NCBI GenBank assembly: GCA_049514955.1
Contig: JBEKUO010000001.1
Coordinates: 11,642-75,641, forward strand
Direction: 5' to 3'
Source: Bryobacteraceae bacterium
Lineage (GTDB): Bacteria; Acidobacteriota; Terriglobia; Bryobacterales; Bryobacteraceae
Length of the DNA stretch: 64,000 nt
Shown here in pieces: positions 12,801 through 47,105 of the stretch. The translations under genes were made by a program, and so were the position numbers. Position 1 is the first letter of the stretch. The number at the start of each line of letters is the position of its first letter. Below the pieces are notes generated by a model. It was not told the DNA's origin and ran no database searches. It saw only the letters and a list, made by a program, of their open reading frames with translations.

Positions 12801-13001
12801 ATGAAATGTCGTGTGGAACCATACCTAACATCCCAGGAGGTTGCCGACGTCCTGGGAATTACCAAGCGCACGCTGATGAACTGGCTGCGCACGCAAAAAA
12901 TCCAGGAGCCGGAGCGCAATCAGATGAACCGCTACCGGCGCTGGACCGCGCAGGATGTAGAGCGTATCCGGCAAACCATCGCGGAGAAAAATAGTGATTA
13001 A
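12801..13001 (+). CDS. MerR/excisionase-family helix-turn-helix DNA-binding protein (66 aa)
   Basis: LTSQEVADVLGITKRTLMNWLRTQKI...RYRRWTAQDVERI matches the HTH_17/excisionase-type pattern. Its stop overlaps the downstream ParA GTG start by 8 nt. Confidence 0.65.
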   Translation: MKCRVEPYLTSQEVADVLGITKRTLMNWLRTQKIQEPERNQMNRYRRWTAQDVERIRQTIAEKNSD

Positions 13002-13797
13002 GCTGGTGATTTCAAACCAACGAGGCGGCGTGGCTAAGACGACCACTGCCACGACGCTGGCGCGGTTGTGGGCCGACCAGGGTCATAAGGTACTGCTGAT
13101 CGACACCGATCCGCAAGGGTCGGTGGGTATGTCCCTGGGCCTGAAGGCAGACAAGTTCCTGCACCATTTCGTGGTCTACAACCACCTGTTCGAGAGCTGC
13201 CTGGTACACGCAGCGCCGAACATCGACGTGCTTTGCAGCAGCCGCGAGACCATCCAGGCGGAGGCTTCTCTGATGGGGGTGCCTGCGCGGGAGATGTCCT
13301 TTTCCCTGCTCTTCTCCAGGGTCGACGAGCCTTACGATGTCGTGCTGATCGATGTGGCGCCGTCCATCACGTTGATGCAGACCTGCGCCATGGTTTACGC
13401 GCAGCGTGTGCTGATCCCGGTCAGCATGGACACGCTCAGCCTCCAGGGCGCGGGTGCCTGCCTGGAGACCGCGCGCATGATGAACGAACTCTTTCGCGTC
13501 AACGTACAGCCGGCGGCCCTTTTGCCGGTCATGGTTGACCGGCGCTTTCAGCACACCGCTGTAATGATGAAATCGCTGGAGGACCTGTCGGCCAAATTCA
13601 GCCTTCCGCTGCTGCCGGCGATCCGAACCGACGTGACGGTCTCCAAATGCGGCCGCGCGCGCCAGTTCCTGGCGGATTACGACCCGAAGTGCAAGGCCAT
13701 GGAAGATTACGAGACTGCGGGAGCGCAACTGTGGGAGCTGCTCAATGAGCGAGCCGACCAAGGAAAATCCGAAAACGTCCAAACGGTCCAGGCGTAA
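12994..13797 (+). CDS. ParA/Soj/MinD-family P-loop ATPase
   Basis: Deviant Walker A region ISNQRGGVAKTTTATTLA, then LLIDTDPQGS, VVLIDVAPS and RVLIPVSMDTLSLQG, colinear with ParA/Soj. The signature lysine position is Arg (RGGVAKTT instead of KGGxGKTT). Confidence 0.85.
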   Translation: MIKLVISNQRGGVAKTTTATTLARLWADQGHKVLLIDTDPQGSVGMSLGLKADKFLHHFVVYNHLFESCLVHAAPNIDVLCSSRETIQAEASLMGVPAREMSFSLLFSRVDEPYDVVLIDVAPSITLMQTCAMVYAQRVLIPVSMDTLSLQGAGACLETARMMNELFRVNVQPAALLPVMVDRRFQHTAVMMKSLEDLSAKFSLPLLPAIRTDVTVSKCGRARQFLADYDPKCKAMEDYETAGAQLWELLNERADQGKSENVQTVQA

Positions 13798-13804
13798 GCC
13801 GGCG

Positions 13805-14878
13805 ATGGAACCGCTCGGCTGGGACGAGATTGTCAGCCAGCCGGGGATGGGCGGCTATCTGTCGTTTTTGAATGGCCCGGTTCCCCTGCCCCACCTTGGA
13901 CGGGCCCCTGCAGTCGAAACGACCCCAGGACCCGTGAGCGGCCCTGTGGTTGTAACACCGGGCGACTTGGCAGCTCCCGATACAAACCCAGGGGCTGGCA
14001 GCACCCCGGGGGTTGAATCAATCTCAGCAAGCACCTCGGCTAAAGGGGCTGAAACAACCCCAGGAATCGAACCTGTTGCGACCCCTCTGTCTCCATCACT
14101 TGCAGGGCTTGCAGCAACCCCAGGGGTTGGTCAACCTGCTCGGCCCTTCGGCACACTGTCAAGCCCAAAGGTCGAACCAACCCCAGGGACTGCTGGCACT
14201 CCTGGTCTCGCCTCGATCTCTGGGTCCGACTCGATTGAAGGAGTTGAAACAACCCCAGTAATCGAAAGCTCTACGACGCATTCAACCGCACCAACAACAG
14301 GGCTCGCAACAGCCCCAGGGGTTGATCGCTCGCTCGCCCCCTCGCCCGCTCGCCCGCTCGGTGCCCTATCAGGGCCAGAGCTCGAAACAACCCCAGGGTC
14401 TGATAACCGGCCTCATCGCTCCCACAGCAACCCAACCCCTGAGGTCATTTCGATTCCTGCCGTTCCACCGGGCCCCCGCCTGCGCATTCGCAAATGTATT
14501 GCCGCGCAGGATGGGCACTCGCTCGGAGAAGAGGTCCTCTATCAGGCACTCTGGAAGACGGCCACGCCGGAATCCGACGAGACTCGCACTATCGTAATCG
14601 GCTGGCGGGGTATGTCGCAGATTTGCCGGATGACACCTAAGAACTGCAAAATCAACACCCAGCGGCTCATTCGCAAGCTGGCCTTGGAGGTCCTGTCGCC
14701 TTACAACACGCCGGAGTCCATCGGCACCACGTACCGCGTTTACGCGAGCGATGCCATCTTACGGCGGCGGCGCTCAGCGGGACTGGAATGGGTTGTGCGG
14801 AGCAGGGGAGTCGAGTTTGTCGACCCCACAACGGGGCAAATGCATTCTGCCCATCTGTGCGGATACGTATCAGAGTAG
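13805..14878 (+). CDS. hypothetical protein: Pro/Thr/Gly-rich repeat N-terminal region plus C-terminal winged-helix-like region (possible ParA partner/adaptor)
   Basis: The ATG at 13805 is 8 nt after the ParA stop; a longer ORF starts at 13745. N-terminal region has about 200 aa of ETTPG/ATPGV repeats. C-terminal region reads GWRGMSQICRMTPKNCKINTQRLIRKLALEVL, which looks HTH-like. I recognise no family. Confidence 0.55.
   Translation: MEPLGWDEIVSQPGMGGYLSFLNGPVPLPHLGRAPAVETTPGPVSGPVVVTPGDLAAPDTNPGAGSTPGVESISASTSAKGAETTPGIEPVATPLSPSLAGLAATPGVGQPARPFGTLSSPKVEPTPGTAGTPGLASISGSDSIEGVETTPVIESSTTHSTAPTTGLATAPGVDRSLAPSPARPLGALSGPELETTPGSDNRPHRSHSNPTPEVISIPAVPPGPRLRIRKCIAAQDGHSLGEEVLYQALWKTATPESDETRTIVIGWRGMSQICRMTPKNCKINTQRLIRKLALEVLSPYNTPESIGTTYRVYASDAILRRRRSAGLEWVVRSRGVEFVDPTTGQMHSAHLCGYVSE
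13913..14400 (+). repeat. intragenic tandem repeats (GAAAC(A/G)ACCCCAGG core; two ~195-nt/65-aa units)
   Basis: The core recurs at about 13913, 14051, 14113, 14170, 14246, 14306 and 14381. At protein level, ETTPGIEPVATPLSPSLAGLAATPGVGQPARPFGTLSSPKVE aligns with ETTPVIESSTTHSTAPTTGLATAPGVDRSLAPSPARPLGALSGPELE. Confidence 0.8.
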
Positions 14879-20589: not shown

Positions 20590-21938
20590 CCGCTGGTGTA
20601 ATGAGCACGGCCAGGGTTTGTCCAGCCACGGTGTGGCCCGCGCCGGATTACAACACGGTGGCGGCCAGCGTGCGCGATCTGTTCCGCTTTCTCGGCCTGG
20701 ACGCGCATAATCCCCTGGGCCGGTGGATCCAGCCCGGCATGACCGTAGTCATCAAGCCCAACTGGGTGAAGCATGAGTTCGGAGCAACGGAAGGTTGCCA
20801 CGTGCTTTACACGCATGCATCGCTGCTACGCGTGCTGATCGATGCGGCGCTGGCGGCGGTGGGTCGGAATGGGCGCGTCTACGTGGCCGACGCGCCGCTG
20901 CAAGGCTGCCATTTCGCCCGCTTTCGCCGGCAGAGTGGGCTCGCCGAACTAGAGGAGCGCTACGCGCGCGCTCCGGTCGCGTTTCTCGATCTGCGGCAAC
21001 AGTGGGCCGAAATCGACGATGCCAGCAGTTTCGTGCGCGGCGTGCATGCGCTCGCGGGCGATCCCCAGGGCTATTCGCTGGTGGATCTGGGCGCACGCAG
21101 CCGCCTCGCGTGCTTCGGCGTAAATGCGCGCTTCGGGGTGACCGATTATCGCGCCGAAACCACCAACGGCCATCACCGCGCGAGCCAGCACCGTTATTTG
21201 GTGAGCAATACCGTGTTGAGCGCCGATGTGATCCTAAACGTTCCCAAGCTCAAGACTCACATGAAAACCGGCATGACCGGCGCGCTCAAGAATTTCGTGG
21301 GCATCATCGGGTCCAAGGATTTTCTGCCGCACTTTCGCGCGGGTTCTCCGAGGAGTGGCGGAGATGAGTACCCGGACAGGAACTGGGCCAGCCGGGCGGC
21401 CAGTCCTGTCCGGGAGCTTCTGCAGACGCGCGCGCCTTTGTGGCTTTGGAAGTTGGCACGGGCGGGCGCGCAGGCAGCGTCGTCGCCGGTGATTCATGGC
21501 GGCGGATGGCATGGCAACGATACGCTGTGGCGCACGGTCCACGACCTGGTGGCTATTGCCCGCAATTACGGCGTGGACGGCACGCGCCGGGACCGGCCCC
21601 GCACCATCCTGACGCTGGTGGATGCCATTGTGGCGGGCGAAGATTGCGGGCCGCTGAAGCCGCGCCCCAAGCCGTGCGGGCTGCTGGTGTGGGGAGAAGA
21701 TCCCGGCGTGGTCGACGTCACCTGCGCCACGCTGATGGGTTTCGACTGGCGCCGCATTCCCCTGCTCAGCCATCTGTGCGATGCCCAGGCGCGGGCTTTC
21801 AGCGACTTTGCCGGCGAGTTGGCATTTCACGCGCCGGCGCCGGGATTGGAGGACTTTGTACGGAGTGGCGGCGGGCAGTTCGCCTCGCCGGTCGGCTGGG
21901 CAGGGGAGATAGAGCAGCGCCAAAGGAGTAAACTTTAA
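20586..21938 (+). CDS. DUF362 domain-containing protein
   Basis: The ATG at 20586 overlaps the upstream stop (ATGA). Motifs MTVVIKPNWVKH and VILNVPKLKTHMKTGMTGALKNFVG match the DUF362 pattern as I recall it. Confidence 0.6.
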   Translation: MTAGVMSTARVCPATVWPAPDYNTVAASVRDLFRFLGLDAHNPLGRWIQPGMTVVIKPNWVKHEFGATEGCHVLYTHASLLRVLIDAALAAVGRNGRVYVADAPLQGCHFARFRRQSGLAELEERYARAPVAFLDLRQQWAEIDDASSFVRGVHALAGDPQGYSLVDLGARSRLACFGVNARFGVTDYRAETTNGHHRASQHRYLVSNTVLSADVILNVPKLKTHMKTGMTGALKNFVGIIGSKDFLPHFRAGSPRSGGDEYPDRNWASRAASPVRELLQTRAPLWLWKLARAGAQAASSPVIHGGGWHGNDTLWRTVHDLVAIARNYGVDGTRRDRPRTILTLVDAIVAGEDCGPLKPRPKPCGLLVWGEDPGVVDVTCATLMGFDWRRIPLLSHLCDAQARAFSDFAGELAFHAPAPGLEDFVRSGGGQFASPVGWAGEIEQRQRSKL

Positions 21939-30422: not shown

Positions 30423-32510
30423 CTACGACTTTCCCACCGCTCCAACGATGAAGTCCACTTCCTGACCCGGCTGCGCGCTGCTTGGCGCAAAATTGTAATT
30501 CGGGCCGCTCATCAGGCGGATGTGGAAGGCATGCCGGGCCCTTCCGGCCTGGAACATTCCGGTCTTGTTCCTTTTCGCGTCTTTTACCGCGGTGGTGCTG
30601 AAGGTGTGCACGCCATCGTTGGCCTTGAAACTGGCCTTCCCCCGGGAGACGCTCAGCCATCCTTGGCAAGTAGTAATAAAGTTGTCACTATGATCGTGAT
30701 ACACCAAAAAACTCGCCACTCCGCCCTTGTCAAGCGCGGCACGATAGTTGATAAATGCATCTGCCGGTTGATTCAGGTAGTAGAGCTCGATTTTGGCGAG
30801 TGCGTTGTAAGCCTGCCAGCGCGACGGATTCGCCTGAATCGCGCTGTTCAGCAGTGTCTGCGCGTCGGTATATAGGACGTTGTTGATCTTCACCTCCGCC
30901 TGCCTGAGCAGCTCGTCGTAGCTCGTAACAACTGGCGCGGGTGGCGGCACGACCGGCGCGGGCGCAGGCTCGACCGGCGCGGGCGCAGGCGTAACGGCGA
31001 CCACCGGCGCTGGTGCCGGCGGCGCCGGTTTCTCCACTGTTACCGGCTGTGGCTCCGGCGCCACCGGATTCTCCGCCTGCGCCTCGAGCGCGCGCTGGCG
31101 CTCCTCGTCGCTTTGCGGAATGCCTGCCGCTTGGGTCGGCCACTGTGTGGACCCTGCGGCCGGCGTAGGGCTCGTAGCCCCTGGCGCAGGGGTCGTGGAA
31201 CCCGACTCAGGGGTTGTAGAACTTGCCGTGGTTGTCGGCCGGTGCCTATGACGGTACCAGTAGATAGAGCCGCCGGTGGCTGCCAGCGCGACGATTGCAA
31301 TCAGAAGCGCGAGGACCAACCACTTCGGCAACGTCCGGCGGACGCGTGGCGGCGGTGGCGGCGCCACAGGCGCTGCGGGGACAGGGCCGGCTATGACCTG
31401 CGGCGCTGGCGGCCCTGGCGGTGGAACAACAGCCGGTGGCTGAGCGGGGGCCACTGGTGCCAGTATCAGCGTCTCAACCAGTGTCCGCCGGGTCTCATCC
31501 AATGCCCGCGTCTCACTCAGAACAGTTACCGGCGCAGGACGAGGGACGGGGAGATTGCCCGTAAGGGCGCTCTTGAAATCCTCCATCGATTGGAATCGGT
31601 CGCCGGCGCGCACGGCCAGCCCCTTCATCAATGCGATCTCCGCGGAAGCCGGAATGCTGACTCCCAGTTGGGAGGGGCTTTCCAGCGTGTCCGCAGCCAG
31701 CCTGTCGATCGAAGCTGGCGGGACCTTCCCGGTGACGGCGCGATAGAGCGTGGCGGCAGTGGCATACACGTCGGTCCATGGGCCTTGAATGCCGTTCGAC
31801 CGGTACTGCTCTTCCGGAGAGTATCCCCCTCTCATGATCACCGAGAGGTTCCGGCTCCTTTGGCTGAGCGCATTGCGCGCCGCGCCAAAATCGATCAGCT
31901 TCACTTTGCCCGTCCTGGGGATGTAGATGTTGTCCGGGCTGACGTCGCGATGCAGGATGTTCTCGGCGTGCACGGCGCTCAAGGCGTCCATCACCGGCAG
32001 CATGATACGGAGCGCCTCCTCGAAAGGGATCGTTCCGCCGCGGCGGCGCAGAAGCTCCTCGAATGTCATGCCCTCGAGGTACTCCATCACCAGGTAAGCC
32101 GTACCGTTATCGCGGAAAACGGTGTCGACCGCCACGATATTGGGGTGATTGCACTTCTTCAGCACGCGCGCCTACTCGAGGAAGCGCTCCAGTCCCCATT
32201 CGTACTCCGGCTTGGTTATGTCGGAGAACGGCAGGACTTTGCTTTGCCCCGTGCGGCCGGCAATGCCATTCGGCATGTACTCTTTTATGGCGAGGCGCGT
32301 TTGCAGGCCGATATCCCAGGCCAGATAGGTGATGCCAAAGCCGCCGTGGCCGAGCGCGCGCCCGATCACGTATTGATCGCGCAAAACCGTGCGCGGCGGC
32401 AGCATCAGGGTGTTGCTGACAGTGGGATGGAAGGGTGACCCACACTTGGGGCAGATCGTGCTGCCGGAATCGTCTTCCAGGCAACTGACGCACATGGTTT
32501 CGAGATTCAT
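30423..32510 (-). pseudogene. Ser/Thr protein kinase (N-terminal zinc-ribbon, TM, Pro-rich linker, C-terminal TPR-like/unknown domain) interrupted by an in-frame TAG
   Basis: ORF 32172-32510 carries CVSC...CPKC, the glycine loop GHGGFGITY and AIKEY. The same frame continues after the TAG (32172-32174) with ARVLKKCNHPNIV, HRDVSPDNIYI, DFGAAR and GYSPEE. ...ERFLE*ARVLKK corresponds to the canonical FLxEARxL segment. Confidence 0.8.
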
Positions 32511-34468: not shown

Positions 34469-36292
34469 CTAAGGTAACTCCCCCATGCAACGGAACCCCA
34501 CATCGCTGGCGCGGCTCTCCGGCGCACCCTGGGAACGGGCCGAGACGCGAACGCCGTCCGCACGCATGTCCCAGGCCCCGCCGCGCAGCACATGCCCGGC
34601 GCCGCCGTCCGGACCTTTGGGATCCGCTCCGGGGCTCGCCTGGTAGTAGCCGCTGCCGTAGAAGTCGGCAGTCCACTCCCACACATTCCCCAGCATGTCG
34701 TACAAGCCGTACCCGTTCGGCTTCTTTTTGGCGACCGGCTGCGGCGCATTCCCGCTGTTATCTCCGTCCCAGGCGATAGCGTCGAGAGCTCCGTATCGCG
34801 ATCGCACATTTCCGCCCCGTGCCGCGAACTCCCATTCCGCCTCAGTGGGCAAACGCAGTCCCGCCCATTCGCAATAACCGGCGGCTTCCTGCCAGGTCAC
34901 CGACACTGCGGGAAGATCTCCTCCTCCCGTTCCCGTGGCGCGCGTATAGCGCTGGTATGCGCCCGCAGTCACCTCCGTCTGCCCCATCCAGAATCCCTGG
35001 CTGATGCTGACTTCGTGCACCGGTTTCTCGTCGGCGGCGCACGTGGCGTCGCCCGGCGAGCACCCCATGCGAAAAGTCCCTGCCGGGATCCACACGTACG
35101 GCAGGCCGTCTTTTGAGTTGGTCCGCACTTCACCCAGGCTCCCCGCCCGCGCAGGACCAGGGGCGGGTGACGGGTGCGACTCAGGCGCCGTTGGCTGATG
35201 CGACCGGAAAAGGAAAATCCAAACAATCGCGGCCAACAGCAGGCACGCCGCCACACCCGCAGCCAGCCACATTCCGGTCTTGCGGGGCTTTGGTGGCGCG
35301 ATGGGCGTGATCTGCACCGTGGGAACGGCCGGTACGACCGCCGTTACTGGCGCCGTCGGCATAACTGCCGCGACGGGCGGCACCGTCTGTCTTGTCGGAG
35401 GGCTCTCTTCCTCCCACACGCCGCCCCCCTGGACCGCGGGCGAGGAGAGCGCCGCAATGAGATCCGCGGCGGTCTGAAATCTTTCCTCTGAATTCTGTTT
35501 CAGACAGCGCAGGATCGCGCTCTCCCATTGCGGGTCCAGGTCCGGAACGAACTGCCGGGGCGGAGGCGCTTGCGGACGAACGTACGCCGCCTCCGGAAAC
35601 GGTCGCCGGCCGGCGACCATTTCATACATCACGATGCCCAGCGCAAAAATGTCCGTCGCTGGTGTGAGCGTGCCCAGGGTAAGTTGCTCGGGAGACATAT
35701 ACGCTGGAGTGCCGACGATATGGCCGACCATCGTCACGTTGCCGGCGGTATCCTCCATGCTGCGCGCCAGTCCGAAATCCGTGACCACCACACGGATCCC
35801 GTTTCCCTTGCCCGTTGGCGTCAGCATGACGTTTGCGGGCTTGAAATCCCGGTGTACGATGCCCACTTCATGTGCCGCATCGAGGGCCGCAGCCATTTGC
35901 ATGACGAGAGGGCCCGCCTCCTGGGTGCTCATGCGCCCCCGGCTCAACCGGTCGGCGAGGTTCTCACCTTGCAGCATTTCCATGGTGAGGAACATCATTC
36001 CGGGTTCCCCGGATGCTGGGTTTCCTGGCGTGATGTGGAGATCGTATATCCGGCAAACATTGGGATGCGTGACCTGCTTGGCCGTCTGCACTTCCCGCTT
36101 GAATCGGGCAGTGGCCTGCGCATTGGAGGCGATATCCGGCCGTATGGTCTTCAGGGCCACGCGCCCGCCCAGATTCAGATCTTCCCCCTCATATACGTCT
36201 CCCATACCGCCGCGTCCGAGCCGGCGCACGATCCGGAACCGGCCTGCCAGTACGTCGCCTGCGCGCAGGCCCAACTCAGGAATTTGGACCAT
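34469..36292 (-). CDS. Ser/Thr protein kinase with TM segment and C-terminal FGE-sulfatase (SUMF1/DUF323) domain
   Basis: Kinase motifs GRGGMGDVYEG, VALKTI, HRDFKPANVML, DFGLAR and YMSPEQ. FGE-domain motifs RLPTEAEWEFAARGG, YGLYDMLGNVWEWTADFY, VLRGGAW and GFRCM. Confidence 0.9.
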   Translation of the reverse strand: MVQIPELGLRAGDVLAGRFRIVRRLGRGGMGDVYEGEDLNLGGRVALKTIRPDIASNAQATARFKREVQTAKQVTHPNVCRIYDLHITPGNPASGEPGMMFLTMEMLQGENLADRLSRGRMSTQEAGPLVMQMAAALDAAHEVGIVHRDFKPANVMLTPTGKGNGIRVVVTDFGLARSMEDTAGNVTMVGHIVGTPAYMSPEQLTLGTLTPATDIFALGIVMYEMVAGRRPFPEAAYVRPQAPPPRQFVPDLDPQWESAILRCLKQNSEERFQTAADLIAALSSPAVQGGGVWEEESPPTRQTVPPVAAVMPTAPVTAVVPAVPTVQITPIAPPKPRKTGMWLAAGVAACLLLAAIVWIFLFRSHQPTAPESHPSPAPGPARAGSLGEVRTNSKDGLPYVWIPAGTFRMGCSPGDATCAADEKPVHEVSISQGFWMGQTEVTAGAYQRYTRATGTGGGDLPAVSVTWQEAAGYCEWAGLRLPTEAEWEFAARGGNVRSRYGALDAIAWDGDNSGNAPQPVAKKKPNGYGLYDMLGNVWEWTADFYGSGYYQASPGADPKGPDGGAGHVLRGGAWDMRADGVRVSARSQGAPESRASDVGFRCMGELP

Positions 36293-41813: not shown

Positions 41814-43742
41814 ATGTGCGGCATTGCCGGATTCTACTTGCGCGAAGGAAATGCAGAGCTCCCTGTCGTGCGCGCCATGTGCGACCAGATCCGCCATAGG
41901 GGACCCGACGACGAGGGCTATCATGTCGCGGGCGGCTGCGCGATCGGCGCGCGGCGCCTGGGTATTATCGATCTCAGTACAGGTCATCAGCCCATGGCCA
42001 ATGAGGACGAATCCGTCTGGGTGGCGTTCAACGGCGAGATTTATAACTATCGGGAATTGCGCCGCGACCTGCTTGCACGGGGACACCGTTTCTCTACGAA
42101 TAGCGATACCGAAACTCTTGTGCACCTCTATGAGGAAGACGGCGTAGAAGGTGTCGCGCGGTTGCGTGGGATGTTTGCCTATGCCATTTGGGATGCGCGC
42201 CATCGCCGCCTGTTTCTGGCTCGCGATCGTTTCGGCAAGAAGCCGCTGTATTATGCCGTGCTGCCGGAGGGATTGTACTTTGCAAGCGAGTTGAAATGCA
42301 TGCCGGTCGCGGGCGTGCCAGTCGAAATCGACACCGAGGCGCTACGGCTGTTCTTTCAATTTACGTACATTCCGGAGCCGTTTACGTGCTTTCAGGCGGT
42401 GCGCAAACTTCCCGCGGGCTCCTGGCTGATGTACGACCGGGACGGGAGAGTCCGCCAAGGACAGTACTGGCGGTTCCCTGAACCCGTGGCTGAGACGCCG
42501 GCGGACTTCTCGGAGGCCCAGGCTTGTACGCGGTTACGGAACAAGTTCGACGAAGCTGTGCGTATCCGCATGATCGCCGATGTTCCGCTGGGCGCTTTCT
42601 TGAGCGGCGGCATCGATTCCAGTTCGGTTGTCGCATCGATGGCACGGGCATCGCCGGAGCCGGTGCGCACGTTCTCCATTGGTTTCGAAGAGCGCGGCTT
42701 CAACGAGCTGTCGTATGCGGCGCTGGTGGCCCAAGAGTATCACACTGAGCATCACGAGATTATGGTCCGTCCTGACGCGGTCGACTTGGTTTCCCGCCTG
42801 CTGCGGCACTTCGACGAACCTTTCGGCGATCCTTCCGCCATCCCCATGTTTGTCGTTTCGGAATTTGCGTCCCAGCACGTGAAAGTAGCGCTGAGCGGAG
42901 ATGGCGGCGACGAGTTGTTCGCGGGCTACGACCGATTCCGAGCGCTGGCTAAGCTGCGCATGGCAGATCATGTGCCGAAGGCGATGCAGCGGTTCGTTTC
43001 CTGGGTTGCCGATTGCTTGCCGTATTCGGCTTACGGCAAAAATTACTTGCACGGGATGACCCGCCCAACCGCTATGGAACGTTATTTCGAGTGCAACTTT
43101 TCGCCCTGGCCTCTGCGAAAGGCGCTGTTTCAACCCGAGTGGATGCTACCCGCCGATAGTGTCTATCTAACGCATACATTGGCACACTTCCTGCTACCGG
43201 ACGATGCCGATCTTCTCTCGCAGGCGCTATACTTTGAAACCACGCAGAATCTGCCTGGAGATCTGCTGGTGAAGGTGGACCGGATGTCGATGGCGAACTC
43301 ACTCGAGGTGCGCTGTCCAATACTGGATCACGAGTTGGGCGAACTGGCCGCTTCTATCCCGCATGCGTGGAAAATCCGTAATGGGAAGGGCAAATACATC
43401 TTTTTACAGGCGCTTGGCGACCGCCTGCCACCGGCGCTCTTGAAGCGCCCCAAGATGGGATTCGGCGTGCCCCTGGCTGTCTGGTTTCGCGGGGACCTGC
43501 GCTCGTTTCTATGGGATCACCTTGGCAGCACCGCGTTCCAGCAGCGGGGTGTCGTGTCGCCCGGTTTCGTGCAACACATGCTCGACGAGCATGAATCCGC
43601 CCGGCGCGATAATTCATACTGGCTATGGTCGCTACTGGTGCTAGAGCTATGGTTCCGTGAATTCGAGCGGAAGCGACCAGCATCGCCGGATCGTTACGAT
43701 CAAACACACACGCCGGCCAAATCCATGTGGGGGCAATCGTAA
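41814..43742 (+). CDS. asnB: asparagine synthase (glutamine-hydrolysing) family amidotransferase, EPS-locus type
   Basis: MCGIAGFY N-terminal nucleophile, GPDDEG, FNGEIYNY, and the PP-loop FLSGGIDSS. Length is 642 aa. Confidence 0.9.
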   Translation: MCGIAGFYLREGNAELPVVRAMCDQIRHRGPDDEGYHVAGGCAIGARRLGIIDLSTGHQPMANEDESVWVAFNGEIYNYRELRRDLLARGHRFSTNSDTETLVHLYEEDGVEGVARLRGMFAYAIWDARHRRLFLARDRFGKKPLYYAVLPEGLYFASELKCMPVAGVPVEIDTEALRLFFQFTYIPEPFTCFQAVRKLPAGSWLMYDRDGRVRQGQYWRFPEPVAETPADFSEAQACTRLRNKFDEAVRIRMIADVPLGAFLSGGIDSSSVVASMARASPEPVRTFSIGFEERGFNELSYAALVAQEYHTEHHEIMVRPDAVDLVSRLLRHFDEPFGDPSAIPMFVVSEFASQHVKVALSGDGGDELFAGYDRFRALAKLRMADHVPKAMQRFVSWVADCLPYSAYGKNYLHGMTRPTAMERYFECNFSPWPLRKALFQPEWMLPADSVYLTHTLAHFLLPDDADLLSQALYFETTQNLPGDLLVKVDRMSMANSLEVRCPILDHELGELAASIPHAWKIRNGKGKYIFLQALGDRLPPALLKRPKMGFGVPLAVWFRGDLRSFLWDHLGSTAFQQRGVVSPGFVQHMLDEHESARRDNSYWLWSLLVLELWFREFERKRPASPDRYDQTHTPAKSMWGQS

Positions 43743-43944
43743 AACGTATGGCGGTTTTGCGTGCTTCGGCGTAAACCAGGGCGTCGTAGCGTGTGCTCAA
43801 GCGTAACCAGGAGGCCCAATCTATGTGCTTGACCGTAAGCAGCACGCTCTCGAACTGGTGCATTGCTTTGCCAAGCTACTGAAAATACAAGGTTTCTTTC
43901 GCTACGCTCAAACCCACTCCTGGATGAGGTTCATTTTGAACGGG

Positions 43945-44018
43945 TTACGGTCTTCTTATGGTCGGGCACACACTCTTTACGATCAAACCCATGGCGCTTA
44001 CGGTCAAACACACGGCAC
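43945..44018 (+). repeat. iteron-like direct repeats TTACG(G/A)TC(AAAC) upstream of the Rep gene
   Basis: TTACGGTC at 43945. TTACGATCAAACCCATGGCGC at 43977-43997 is immediately followed by TTACGGTCAAACACACGGCAC at 43998-44018, a 21-nt period. A further copy TTACGATCAAACACACA is at 43694-43710. TTATGGTC variants occur at about 43956 and 44108. Confidence 0.5.
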
Positions 44019-44293
44019 AAAAACGCTTGCTTTCACTGTAAGTGTTTGTAAAATAAAGTAGTTGTCCTCGCATCTCTATCTCGGCGACGCATGTATATGG
44101 AATGGTCTTATGGTTTGGTAACCCTAACGGAAGATAGCACTGGTGCGGTGTACAAGGCTGTTTGTGGATGGCTGGCGTGTGCTTACCAATAAAAATACCG
44201 CAAAGCCACGGGCTTCATCGTAAATCGCTAGAACAGAACATCGAAGAAATGTTAAAAAACAGATGATGCAGTCTGCGTTCTAAGGCATACAAC

Positions 44294-45889
44294 GTGAGCA
44301 AACATATCACCAAGCCTTCTCTGGTCAACCTGTCCGTTGAGGAAGAGAACCTCGCAGCCATTCCCTTTGCGGTGCTGGAGCGAAGGGTAGGCAAACGAGT
44401 TGGCAAGATCGAGATTAAAGGCACGAAGATCCTTCCTAACGGTGGGGAGATGGAGGTCGTCTGGCAGATACAGGGCAACAACGAATTGGGCCTGCCGACC
44501 GAGCAAGACCTTGATATCTTTGTTGCGCTGGGTGTGCTGACCTTCCGTAACAACTTTGCCAAGACGGTGACGTTCAGCGGGCGGGAGATAGCCCGAATGC
44601 TGAATATCAACTCCGTACACGGCAAGTTCTATCAGCGGCTGAAGCTGGCCATGGATCGTTTCATTCCGTTGCGTTTCCGGGCGCTTACCGCTACAGACCA
44701 GCAAGAAGAAGTCAAGTGGAGCAACGTATTTCAGGAAGCCAGTTTTTTGTTGGATCGCGAAAGCGGTCGCTGCACCGGCAGCGTTACCTGGACTGACAAA
44801 CTAATCCAATCTATCAACAACGGCTTCTTTCGAGTGCTGGACGCCGGCCGGTATATGGAGCTTGATGGAATTACGGCCAAGCACTTGTACCGCTTCTTTG
44901 CCGTGGCCTTTGAAAAGACCGACCTGATTGTGATGGACGCCCGCAAATTGGCGATGGAGCATGTAGGCATCCTGAACCCACCACACTATTTTTCACGGTT
45001 GATGCAGACTCTCGAACCGGCATTCGACCAGTTGGTCCGCATCCAGGTGTTGGGATCTTATAACGTAATTTCCGCAGAAGACTGGCGGATCGCGATGCAC
45101 AGGCACCCGTCTTACGTGCCTGAGCGTAAGAGCCTGATGCTGCAAAGTACAGTTGGTCCAGAGCTAAGCCGCGCCCACTGCCAGAGTATGTTGGAAAAAG
45201 CGGGTTTCGCGTACAAACCAGCCATGACTTGGAGCGAAGCAGCCCAGACGCCAGAAGAATTGTACGCGTTAGAACGCGCTGCATACCTTGTGCAGGCCAT
45301 GAAGCAAGACGGCGTGCTGCCGCATGTGGCTACCAGTTTTGTATCGCGTGCACTCGACTTGGGCGCGGCATCGGGCGAGGGCAGGGAAGCGCTCGACTGG
45401 TGCGAGATGGCAGTGGAGATCTGCAGACAAAAGAAGCACACCGGTCAGAACCTCAAAAACGCTGCCGGGCTGCTAGTCAAGATTATAAAAGATCCGGCCA
45501 CGCGCACCCGGTTGCTGGACGAACAGATGGAGTCCGCCGCTAAGGAGCGGTACCGGCAACGCGAGCGTACTATCCTGCGGCAAAATCAAGAAGCCGAAGA
45601 ACGCGCCGTCATACTGGAATACGAACAATTCCGGCACGCCACTGCACAGAGTCTTTTCGAGCAACTCAGCGAATCGGCAAAGCAGGTTCTTGGAAAAGAA
45701 AAAGCGGAACTGCTCCGGCGCGAAGGCCGGTTGGAGAGAATGGCGCCGGAAGTGCGCGACCGTGAAGTAACAGACCTGATTCTGCAGGATCTTGCGAAGA
45801 ACGAGGTGCCGCCTTACAGCAAATGGCTGTTGCGCAAGCGCGCCGGGCAGGCAGTACTACCGTTCGCTTCCGCGGAAAGCCTCGCCTGA
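44294..45889 (+). CDS. replication initiator protein A (RPA/pfam10134-like) family protein
   Basis: N-terminus ENLAAIPFAVLERR...VVWQIQGNNELGLPTEQDLDIFVALGVLTF follows the RPA-family pattern (PFFsL.kr...GlaT..D.DIL). GTG start. The gene is visibly more AT-rich than its neighbours. Confidence 0.6.
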   Translation: MSKHITKPSLVNLSVEEENLAAIPFAVLERRVGKRVGKIEIKGTKILPNGGEMEVVWQIQGNNELGLPTEQDLDIFVALGVLTFRNNFAKTVTFSGREIARMLNINSVHGKFYQRLKLAMDRFIPLRFRALTATDQQEEVKWSNVFQEASFLLDRESGRCTGSVTWTDKLIQSINNGFFRVLDAGRYMELDGITAKHLYRFFAVAFEKTDLIVMDARKLAMEHVGILNPPHYFSRLMQTLEPAFDQLVRIQVLGSYNVISAEDWRIAMHRHPSYVPERKSLMLQSTVGPELSRAHCQSMLEKAGFAYKPAMTWSEAAQTPEELYALERAAYLVQAMKQDGVLPHVATSFVSRALDLGAASGEGREALDWCEMAVEICRQKKHTGQNLKNAAGLLVKIIKDPATRTRLLDEQMESAAKERYRQRERTILRQNQEAEERAVILEYEQFRHATAQSLFEQLSESAKQVLGKEKAELLRREGRLERMAPEVRDREVTDLILQDLAKNEVPPYSKWLLRKRAGQAVLPFASAESLA

Positions 45890-45968
45890 TAGGCCGCGCA
45901 CTCCAATCCCAGCGAGGCACGTAGGTTGGCCAGGAACTACGGTCGCACAAGGATTTGCCCCCTTTCAG

Positions 45969-47105
45969 CTATTGACCAGCGCGAGTTTCCTTCCACAATT
46001 TACGCGCCGGGACAAAGAAGATGGCAACCGCGCACAGCGCGGCGGCCATCAGCACGACGAAGGTGCGGGCCAGCGAGGAAATTCGCTTTATGGGCCAACT
46101 CCTGGGGATGCGCGAGTCAAGCGCCGCCAAAAGGTAGAAAGCCGCCTGCGCAGTGACGGCTACGGCCCGCCATGCACCCGGCAGCCCAAAACTCGAGCCG
46201 GCCATCAGCAGAAGAGCAAATGGCACCAGCAAACGCCCGAGTTTGTGCGACACAAAGTGAAGCCACATGCGGTTGCCCGGCCCGATGAGCGCCGGAAAAA
46301 TACCGATCAGTTGGTAGATCCCAGCCAGCGTCCGCACTTTCCGGCGAAACTCCGCATCCAGCGTGGTGGGGTATTCGTAGGCGATGGCGCCCGTGTCGAA
46401 AACGAAACGGTAGCCCCGGAAGAAACCGCAAAGCGGAAGATAGGAATCGTCCAGCAGCGTATCCGGCGGGATGGGCGAAGCCAGCTCGCGGCGCATGGCG
46501 TAAATGCAGCCGGTACCCGCCTGTATCGAGTGGATGCGGGTGTGGTTGAGCCGGATCCATTTCTCGTAACGCCAATAGAGACCCATGTGGGCTTGTTGTT
46601 GCTCTTCCTTAGCGCCGAGAAAATATAAATGGCCGCAGGCTGCGCCGACCGAGGGATCACCAAGGCAAGATACCAGACTCTTCAGACACCCGGCATCGAG
46701 CGGTTGGCGTACATCGGTGAAGAACAGAATTTCGCCGTCCGCGGCGCGCAGGCCGGCGTTTAGAGCGGCGGCTTTTCCGCCGCGCGGAACTCGGAGCAGT
46801 TCGACGCCGTCGCGCCCGAATCCGCGCACGATCTCGTCGGTCCCGTCGCTGGATCCGTCTGAGATCACGATAACGCGCAGTAACTCCCGCGGGTAGTCGA
46901 GGCGGAGGATGGACAGGAGCTTGTCACGTATCCAGTTCTCTCCGTTGTACACAGCCAGAAGGAGGTTTACGGTTTTCGGTTCGAAATGTCTATCGATTTT
47001 ACGATCACGGCGCGCAAGCACCGCCAGCAGCAGCGGATAGCCGAGCAGGATATAGACCGTGAAGCTCAGCGAGACCAGAAATACGAGCGCAGAGCCGCTA
47101 GGCAT
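45969..47105 (-). CDS. membrane-anchored glycosyltransferase family 2 (synthase-like)
   Basis: N-terminal TM segment, then LLAVYNGENWIRDKLLSILRLDYPRELLRVIVISDGSSDGTDEIV, FTDVRQ, GTGCIYAMRRE and EFRRKVRTLAG (QxxRW-like), followed by C-terminal TM segments. Confidence 0.8.
   Translation of the reverse strand: MPSGSALVFLVSLSFTVYILLGYPLLLAVLARRDRKIDRHFEPKTVNLLLAVYNGENWIRDKLLSILRLDYPRELLRVIVISDGSSDGTDEIVRGFGRDGVELLRVPRGGKAAALNAGLRAADGEILFFTDVRQPLDAGCLKSLVSCLGDPSVGAACGHLYFLGAKEEQQQAHMGLYWRYEKWIRLNHTRIHSIQAGTGCIYAMRRELASPIPPDTLLDDSYLPLCGFFRGYRFVFDTGAIAYEYPTTLDAEFRRKVRTLAGIYQLIGIFPALIGPGNRMWLHFVSHKLGRLLVPFALLLMAGSSFGLPGAWRAVAVTAQAAFYLLAALDSRIPRSWPIKRISSLARTFVVLMAAALCAVAIFFVPARKLWKETRAGQ

Follow-up and report, generated by a model that had tools for sequence, protein, structure and literature searches.

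A conserved plasmid-type Rep/iteron module within a glycan biosynthesis region of Bryobacteraceae, a candidate replication origin of a large replicon

The window analyzed here is a stretch of 64,000 nucleotides (nt) from a Bryobacteraceae bacterium (Acidobacteriota; GenBank assembly GCA_049514955.1, contig JBEKUO010000001.1, positions 11,642 to 75,641 of the forward strand), and all coordinates are counted from its first letter unless another locus is named. Throughout its length, the window is one large polysaccharide/glycan biosynthesis region, with genes for glycosyltransferases, flippases, Wzy, priming transferases, epimerases, and Ser/Thr kinases. Within this region, at 43690-45889, lies a gene for a plasmid-type replication initiator (rep), preceded by an array of short repeats (iterons) and A/T-rich tracts. 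On balance, we lean toward the view that this module is a complete and functional theta-plasmid-type Rep/iteron origin, passed on vertically as part of a large replicon (at least 384 kb) of Bryobacteraceae. We infer such origin activity from the architecture of the module, its conservation, and the GC skew of its surroundings, and the term "plasmid-type" describes ancestry and mechanism only.

The rep gene and its iteron array

The rep open reading frame (ORF; 44294-45889, plus strand) has a GTG start and encodes 531 amino acids (aa). An intergenic gap of 551 nt separates it from an asnB-like ORF (41814-43742, plus strand; Asn_synthase, E = 1e-103), and a GT2 glycosyltransferase gene (45969-47105, minus strand) converges on it from the other side. 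GC content falls to 0.47 at 43800-44400, versus 0.60 to 0.66 in the flanks, which bears out the remark in the initial annotation of this DNA that the gap is more AT-rich than its surroundings. As was also remarked there, no mobilization or integration genes flank rep in the window; tRNA, rRNA, and mobility genes were absent from the entire 64 kb, and Rfam and tRNA scans of the window returned no matches.

The repeats that had been proposed for the gap are enriched over shuffled sequence. The pattern TTACGRTCAAACMC, with up to 2 mismatches allowed, has 8 matches in the 64 kb versus 0.81 expected, a number reached by 0 of 100 shuffles, and 7 of the 8 matches fall within 43694-44884. TRF likewise recovered the proposed tandem pair with its 21-nt period, at 43977-44016. 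Eighty-two orthologous loci were compared, all of them on Bryobacteraceae-type metagenome contigs (the window protein itself occurs on contigs of at most 84 kb), and an 18-bp motif was built from about 100 sites collected across orthologous loci. Its consensus, yTTACGaTcAArCaCAyG, carries information that extends beyond the search pattern. A position weight matrix (PWM) trained on the other loci only, with the window left out, places nine sites upstream of rep within 43693-44224 (43693+, 43758-, 43790-, 43822-, 43955+, 43976+, 43997+, 44176-, and 44207-) and a strong one inside rep (45113-); shuffled sequence gives about 1 match per 64 kb, and the window elsewhere has four weak matches. Relaxed matching adds 43901+ and a degenerate site at 43725-, giving about 11 copies in the 600 nt upstream of rep and, with the intragenic one, twelve. 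By relaxed matching, the layout is one plus-strand iteron, four minus-strand iterons at 32 nt, four plus-strand iterons at 54, 21, and 21 nt, and two minus-strand iterons. The set at 43693-44224 thereby has the repeats expected of an iteron-type theta origin, namely, at least three direct repeats of 17 to 22 bp with helical spacing, next to a rep gene.

Iteron 1 (GTTACGATCAAACACACA; 43693-43710, plus strand; PWM score, 25.8 bits) marks the left edge of the module and lies within the last codons of the asnB-like gene, where a repeat copy had been placed initially; a plus iteron at about -600 is found in every orthologue, whichever gene lies upstream. The minus block (43725-43839) consists of four iterons about 32 nt apart, at 43725-43744 (degenerate and overlapping the asnB stop codon), 43758-43775, 43790-43807, and 43822-43839, and in a 13-locus alignment its GTG..CGTAA cores are invariant and its spacers are free. 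The GCGTAA(A)CCAGG pair at 43769 and 43801, which the initial annotation had listed as a separate repeat, is present as a sequence but represents the ends of two of these minus iterons, 32 nt apart. The plus block contains four iterons, at 43901-43918, 43955-43972 (degenerate), 43976-43993, and 43997-44014; the copy formerly assigned to 43945 amounts to no more than half a site, the actual degenerate copies lying at 43901 and 43955, and every locus has the tandem pair (43976-43993 and 43997-44014) in the same position.

The plus block is bordered by two A/T-rich tracts whose positions are conserved across loci, and no 13-mer repeats were seen in them. Tract 1 (43865-43900; 62% A+T in a 40-nt window) lies between the minus and plus blocks, and the most A/T-rich 40-mer falls at its relative position in 19 of 40 loci. 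Tract 2 (44020-44062), directly 3' of the tandem iterons, reaches 70% A+T in 40 nt versus a background of about 40%, and the mean A+T content at +20 to +60 past the last plus iteron is 64% across 40 loci. We regard tract 2 as a candidate DNA-unwinding element.

Closer to rep, a conserved non-iteron block (44093-44122; TATATGGAATGGTyTTATGGTTTGG..., TATATGGAATGGTTTATGGTTTGG) shows near-invariant columns in the 13-locus alignment; it was considered as a DnaA box and dropped, as it contains no DnaA box within 1 mismatch. It is followed by two promoter-proximal minus iterons, at 44176-44193 (a variant that ends in CAATAA; 10.1 bits) and 44207-44224 (24.7 bits), which lie at -118 and -87 from the rep start codon, and a minus iteron at about -85 is found in every orthologue. 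The block GTGTGCTTGCCAATAAAAAC...CATCGTAAATCGCTAGAACA around this pair is conserved in the same alignment, and the pair (44176-44224) is a candidate autoregulatory operator. What had been described as an A/T tract at 44186-44200 is indeed conserved but is not a plain A/T tract, being part of the variant iteron and the conserved block. Just 5' of the rep start codon, at 44225-44262, there is another near-invariant non-iteron block (CGCTAGAACA...TGTTACAAAAACAG). The blocks at 44093-44122 and 44225-44262 could represent a host-factor site and a promoter/leader, respectively; a scan for sigma-70 promoters and terminators found no more than expected by chance.

The intragenic iteron (CTTACGCTCAGGCACGTA; 45113-45130, minus strand; 19.9 bits) covers codons Y274-K279 of rep, in the linker between the second winged-helix (WH) domain, WH2, and the C-terminal domain, and is a candidate control, looping, or handcuffing site. 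A further "iteron" inside rep, at +577, was weak and lineage restricted and was treated as chance. Outside the module, an isolated iteron-like site (TTTACGCCGAAGCACGCG; 21107-21124, minus strand; 16.6 bits) lies 23 kb away within an exopolysaccharide (EPS) operon; it is identical to the iteron at 43758-43775 at 17 of 18 positions and may be either a chance occurrence or a remote Rep site. GATC occurs in about half of the iterons (CGATC core, consensus positions 4-7; 43698 and 43981 in the window), which recalls the methylation-dependent iteron binding of RctB.

Family and fold of the Rep protein

The initial annotation took the rep product for an RPA-family initiator. Its homology to that family holds, but its match to the Pfam RPA family (PF10134; E = 2.1e-5, 24.7 bits) stays below the 27-bit gathering cutoff; Rep3_N WH1 of Pfam gives a weaker match (E = 1.6e-3). 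Among 40 orthologues, 27 match PF10134 at an E value of 1e-3 or lower, the best at 3.6e-6. A tblastn search of PLSDB (72,556 plasmids) matched solely genes annotated as "replication initiator protein A" or "TrfA," at 24 to 27% identity, on plasmids of Planctomycetes and Rubrobacter. When a profile of the 40 orthologues was aligned by hhalign to 26 PF10134-positive proteins, the match had a probability of 100% and an E value of 8e-44 over 458 aligned columns, and all 26 of these distant proteins match PF10134, down to an E value of 1.5e-20. The alignment takes in the helical C-terminal half, and this profile-profile comparison with plasmid RPA proteins ruled out the idea of a clade-specific C-terminal domain. 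NCBIfam and PHROGs held no family for Rep, and PDB sequence searches gave spurious helical-repeat matches or none.

Rep comprises a WH1-WH2 core (about aa 25 to 270) and a helical C-terminal domain (aa 290 to 531). An AlphaFold (AF2) model, with a pLDDT of 74 and a WH core of moderate confidence only, had as its best PDB matches in Foldseek domains 2-3 of RctB (E = 5e-7, probability 1.0), RepE (2z9o), and the WH1 domain of the MSBI1.176 Rep. The likeness to RctB is one of fold only, as no match to RctB was found in Pfam, NCBIfam, or PDB sequence searches. By profile and predicted fold, the rep product can be assigned securely to the RPA/TrfA superfamily of double winged-helix initiators, as a distant member. 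One of the 26 RPA-family proteins, which are about 30% identical to Rep, carries a match to the DnaA N-terminal domain (PF11638, E = 2.7e-5), a hint that some members of the Rep family may recruit helicase via a DnaA-like module.

Conservation, GC skew, and neighborhood of the orthologous loci

Full-length relatives of Rep number in the hundreds, at 62 to 98% identity, all of them from metagenomes or metagenome-assembled genomes (MAGs), on contigs of up to 384 kb, and those that are named are labeled Bryobacteraceae. In a library clustered at 50% identity, these relatives form a single full-length cluster, the next relatives being about 30% identical, and each of ten species-representative MAGs has one rep locus. 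The 720 nt upstream of rep contain 9 to 13 iterons (mean, 10.7) in the 82 loci, versus 0.22 per 720 nt elsewhere. Forty of the 82 show the strand order + ---- ++++ -- exactly, with spacings of 32, 21, 31, and 54 nt, and 32 nt is the commonest same-strand spacing (196 times in the 82 loci). In the 13-locus alignment, the iteron cores as a whole are invariant while the spacers are essentially randomized, and the iteron pattern persists in lineages with entirely different flanking genes.

The protein has evolved slowly as well. Between rep and its 98%-identical orthologue in locus L020, dN/dS is 0.024 at a dS of 0.31, and dS is saturated by the time protein identity has dropped to 88%. In each comparison, rep exceeds all of its neighbors in conservation, with protein identities of 98.5% versus 84 to 95.6% for the neighbors, 88% versus 61 to 80%, and 84% versus 64 to 78%. 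This rank, together with a dN/dS of 0.02, therefore argues against a decaying or recent plasmid insertion. The lower GC content of rep relative to its neighbors, which the initial annotation had pointed out, is common to 37 of 37 orthologues and is therefore no sign of recent transfer.

In 38 of 39 loci, an intragenic iteron (+820, minus strand, 17 to 25 bits) occupies the corresponding position. Within its footprint, Arg is encoded by CGT in 36 of 36 loci, though CGT makes up 18% of the Arg codons in these genes, Val by GTG in 36 of 36, and Pro by CCT in 33 of 36, whereas codons just outside vary freely. The frozen synonymous positions show selection on the DNA sequence itself and thus indicate a genuine, if predicted, binding site.

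Judged by these sequence comparisons, the module is an ancient, single-copy, vertically inherited, and slowly evolving feature of Bryobacteraceae. The proposal of a plasmid-type module consequently survives in its parts, that is, the RPA gene, the phased iterons, and the A/T tracts, but not as an isolated or recent insertion, given that the module is family-wide and single-copy. Similarity to Rep proteins was found, the repeats were enriched, and there was no multi-copy family without repeats.

GC skew was regressed per gene, on the plus strand, for eight loci with 10-kb flanks, which represent five contexts. Mean skew of the flanking genes is about -0.04 on the left and about +0.04 on the right, in either gene orientation, with a side coefficient of 0.040 (bootstrap confidence interval [CI], 0.024 to 0.060) and an orientation coefficient of 0.002. 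At four-fold degenerate sites, the side coefficient is 0.060 (CI, 0.018 to 0.095). When flanks are clustered by context, left flanks are negative in 7 of 7 contexts and right flanks are positive in 8 of 10 (Mann-Whitney U test, P = 7e-4), and in 49 of 52 loci the right flank has the higher skew. Averaged over contexts, skew is -0.06 to -0.09 at -10 to -5 kb, changes sign between -4 kb and rep, and then remains at +0.01 to +0.06 on the right side as far as +11 kb. Three further contexts (loci L105, L109, and L111) agree, and the right flank of L105 has a skew of +0.065 though nearly all of its genes are on the minus strand. This polarity, negative and then positive, is of the origin type and not of the terminus type, and it is independent of the orientation of the locus.

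The genes around rep are variable. The downstream gene differs among loci, being convergent in the window, L017, L019, L105, and L111. In L014 (11646-13037) and L016 (11692-13080), a Bac_transf priming transferase gene has the same orientation as rep and begins 20 nt past the rep stop codon, an arrangement suggestive of cotranscription of rep with Bac_transf in these two loci.

A three-gene cassette in the window (12801-14878, plus strand) encodes a 66-aa HTH_17-like protein, a ParA-like ATPase (ParA_partition, 77 bits, below the cutoff), and a Pro/Thr-rich partner. The same cassette is present in L003 (5559-7307, minus strand), L018 (5520-7275, minus strand), and L109 (20257-21617, plus strand), with identities of 46 to 51% for ParA, 42 to 44% for the HTH protein, and 30 to 35% for the partner over its C terminus. 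It lies 30 kb from rep in the window and 3 to 10 kb from it in the other three loci, in at least 3 different contexts, and an integrase adjoins it in L003, L018, and L109 but not in the window. The cassette could belong to an island or provide the partition system of the replicon; a search for centromere-like repeats beside it found none. Over the whole window, cumulative G-C reaches its minimum at 14762, at the end of this cassette; this minimum may reflect local noise, the boundary of a rearrangement, or a functional feature.

Toxin-antitoxin-type genes (FitA/PIN, PemK, PIN) lie a few kb from rep in L105 (7800-8482), L017 (6891-7214), and L109 (19132-19557) and could be leftover plasmid-stability functions or a coincidence. 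Elsewhere in the glycan region of the window, a Ser/Thr protein kinase is fused to an FGE-sulfatase domain (34469-36292, minus strand); this kinase and a second one (30423-32165, minus strand) are both kept beside extracytoplasmic function (ECF) sigma genes in close relatives.

Origin function, competing explanations, and significance

If the module acts as an origin, Rep monomers would bind the 18-bp iterons via their two winged-helix domains, and the phased arrays, in which 21 nt correspond to two helical turns and 32 nt to three, would set Rep on one face of the DNA. The adjacent A/T-rich tracts would then be strained open, helicase would be loaded, and forks would leave both ways. The two promoter-proximal inverted iterons would serve as the operator for Rep autorepression, and firing may be limited, through looping or handcuffing, by the block of opposite orientation and by the +820 iteron inside rep.

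Several observations weigh against this origin model. The window's own skew is weak (side coefficient at four-fold sites, 0.004), skew is positive at 16 to 34 kb of the window, and the cumulative G-C minimum at about 14.7 kb is as deep as the one near Rep; a skew scan of the window only, with 10-kb arms, ranked the rep locus 26th of 440 positions and was not decisive. The flanks of the other loci extend just 6 to 10 kb, the contexts are partly dependent on each other, as asnB-like and glycosyltransferase (GT) genes recur in them, and the short left flank of L110 (3 kb) has a strongly positive skew. Nor do the flanking genes tend to point away from the locus (about 52%). The A/T-rich tracts are short and only moderately A/T-rich, and in none of 13 loci do the 720 nt 5' of rep contain a DnaA box (TTATCCACA, within 1 mismatch). 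No parAB was found adjoining rep, unlike in the planctomycete plasmid pPL62-2, and none lies within 10 kb in most contexts. Finally, rep sits in a glycan-biosynthesis cluster in every one of about ten contexts, which a pure origin leaves unexplained.

That constant setting would be accounted for if Rep were domesticated and no longer initiated replication, instead repressing its own gene and controlling or insulating the transcription of the surrounding glycan genes, for example, by looping the array to +820. We consider this explanation, the main rival of the origin model, unlikely, although a potential rep-Bac_transf operon (L014 and L016), the lack of a DnaA box and of adjoining par genes, and the absence of a switch in the window's own four-fold-site skew are all consistent with it, and strong purifying selection would suit any essential function. 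A glycan-gene regulator has no conserved partner downstream of rep (the gene there is convergent in the window and in four of the loci named above), and the strong sites are all upstream of or inside rep, with none at the promoters of the neighbors. Eleven phased sites and A/T tracts far exceed the needs of an autoregulator, and the full-length initiator architecture has been kept, including a C-terminal domain common to plasmid Reps. The orientation-independent, origin-type polarity of the skew is also left unexplained by such a role.

It is improbable, in our estimate, that the module is the silenced origin of an anciently integrated plasmid, kept in order to titrate or handcuff incoming related plasmids or as a backup origin under stress. 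Opposed iteron blocks with a remote intragenic iteron do resemble copy-control (inc) arrays and not a minimal origin, no partition system adjoins, and the HTH_17-ParA-partner trio lends a plasmid or island flavor at 3 to 30 kb from rep in several lineages. However, a permanently silent origin would create no skew switch, and conservation across the family at a dN/dS of 0.02 would be unusual for an exclusion function. There are, moreover, no related free plasmids in Acidobacteria in PLSDB, where the nearest, 24 to 27% identical, are those of Planctomycetes and Rubrobacter. We give almost no credence to a recent or decaying remnant of an integrated plasmid, a rep-ori cassette between two EPS genes that has no host function, since the low GC content of rep and the gap relative to the flanks, the position between convergent genes, and the subthreshold Pfam RPA match are outweighed by the presence of the module at a syntenic place in dozens of relatives, the rank of rep as the most conserved gene of its neighborhood (dN/dS, 0.024), binding sites conserved while spacers are saturated, the frozen synonymous codons of the intragenic iteron, a low GC content common to 37 of 37 orthologues, and the lack of mobility genes flanking the module in the window.

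For the origin model, which we thus favor, the replicon has also to be considered. The conventional answer is a chromid or megaplasmid, though there is no parAB at the origin. Some flanks contain kdsA-like, nadE-like, and flagellar genes, contigs extend to 384 kb, and the Rep present is of plasmid type. It is possible, if doubtful, that the main chromosome, of multi-megabase size, harbors the module as an active origin, either a second one beside DnaA-oriC or its replacement. The lack of an adjoining partition system and the origin-type skew at the locus would fit a chromosomal location, as would the one closed genome consulted, that of P. fermentans, which has no large secondary replicon and consists of a 9.48-Mb chromosome and a 55-kb plasmid only (PMC8407742). 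This 55-kb plasmid, if it is in PLSDB at all, gave no tblastn match to Rep. Apart from that genome note, a literature search on chromids, megaplasmids, and origins of Bryobacteraceae and Acidobacteria returned nothing relevant.

Among known systems, the RPA/TrfA plasmids pPL62-2 of Planctomyces sp. SH-PL62 (NZ_CP011275) and of Rubrobacter indicoceani (NZ_CP031116) encode initiators with full-length homology to Rep (24 to 27% identity), and both have a gap of about 930 nt 5' of rep with 6 to 10 iterons at a 22- to 23-nt period, the same layout as here. These replicons are free circular plasmids of 52 to 190 kb, with parA-parB directly 3' of rep in pPL62-2, whereas the Bryobacteraceae loci lie on contigs of up to 384 kb with no plasmid backbone and no adjoining par. 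Unlike its plasmid relatives, the Bryobacteraceae rep is single-copy and family-wide, with three iteron blocks of alternating orientation, 32- and 21-nt phasing, and an intragenic iteron.

The best structural match to Rep, domains 2-3 of RctB, comes from the initiator of Vibrio cholerae chromosome 2 (ori2). RctB has a plasmid-Rep-like double-WH core with extra domains and acts on phased arrays of short iterons and on separate regulatory sites; it initiates replication of a large domesticated replicon, is specific to its family, and evolves slowly. The Rep locus resembles RctB/ori2 in having a family-specific, slowly evolving, plasmid-derived initiator, phased iterons, and remote regulatory sites. 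It differs in that there is no sequence similarity, no equivalents of parAB2 or rctA adjoin, no second class of sites like the 39-mers was seen, and GATC is present in just about half of the iterons.

Similar features recur in P1 (RepA, incC/incA), F (RepE, the fourth PDB fold match to Rep), RK2 (TrfA/oriV), and R6K (pi), in which, as here, iterons lie about two helical turns apart beside an A/T-rich region, with further iterons in inverted orientation close to the rep promoter and others at a distance that could handcuff. Classical iteron plasmid origins normally carry DnaA boxes, however, and none was found here; also unlike them, the module carries a control-type site within the rep ORF and is passed on vertically as a feature of the host. 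Sulfolobus oriC3, beside its own initiator gene, and integrative suppression in Escherichia coli are cases in which an extrachromosomal origin with its initiator drives a large host replicon. They offer a conceptual parallel, but domain, initiator family, and experimental setting differ, and we know of no established natural case of such an embedded Rep/iteron origin in a bacterial main chromosome. The module is set apart from all of the compared systems by its alternating blocks, three-turn spacing, in-frame iteron, lack of a DnaA box and of par, and constant residence in glycan clusters.

Iteron/Rep origins are textbook plasmid devices of which few domesticated forms are known, such as RctB/ori2 of Vibrio and the repABC chromids, and these have guided current views on the emergence of secondary chromosomes and on their coupling to the cell cycle. 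If the origin model is correct, Bryobacteraceae would provide a new and independent domesticated Rep origin, in the Acidobacteria, a phylum that abounds in soil but resists genetic manipulation. The site architecture of the module is unusual, with three alternating iteron blocks and a further predicted site written into the coding sequence of the initiator, and its conservation is like that of a core gene. As the origin of a chromid, the module would define a new chromid lineage and provide a marker for binning that chromid in metagenomes. Located in the main chromosome, it would challenge the rule of a single DnaA-dependent origin per bacterial chromosome and would be a natural bacterial counterpart of the multi-origin chromosomes of archaea and of integrative suppression in the laboratory. 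The 2.2-kb module would also be a candidate replicon for the first shuttle vectors for Bryobacteraceae.

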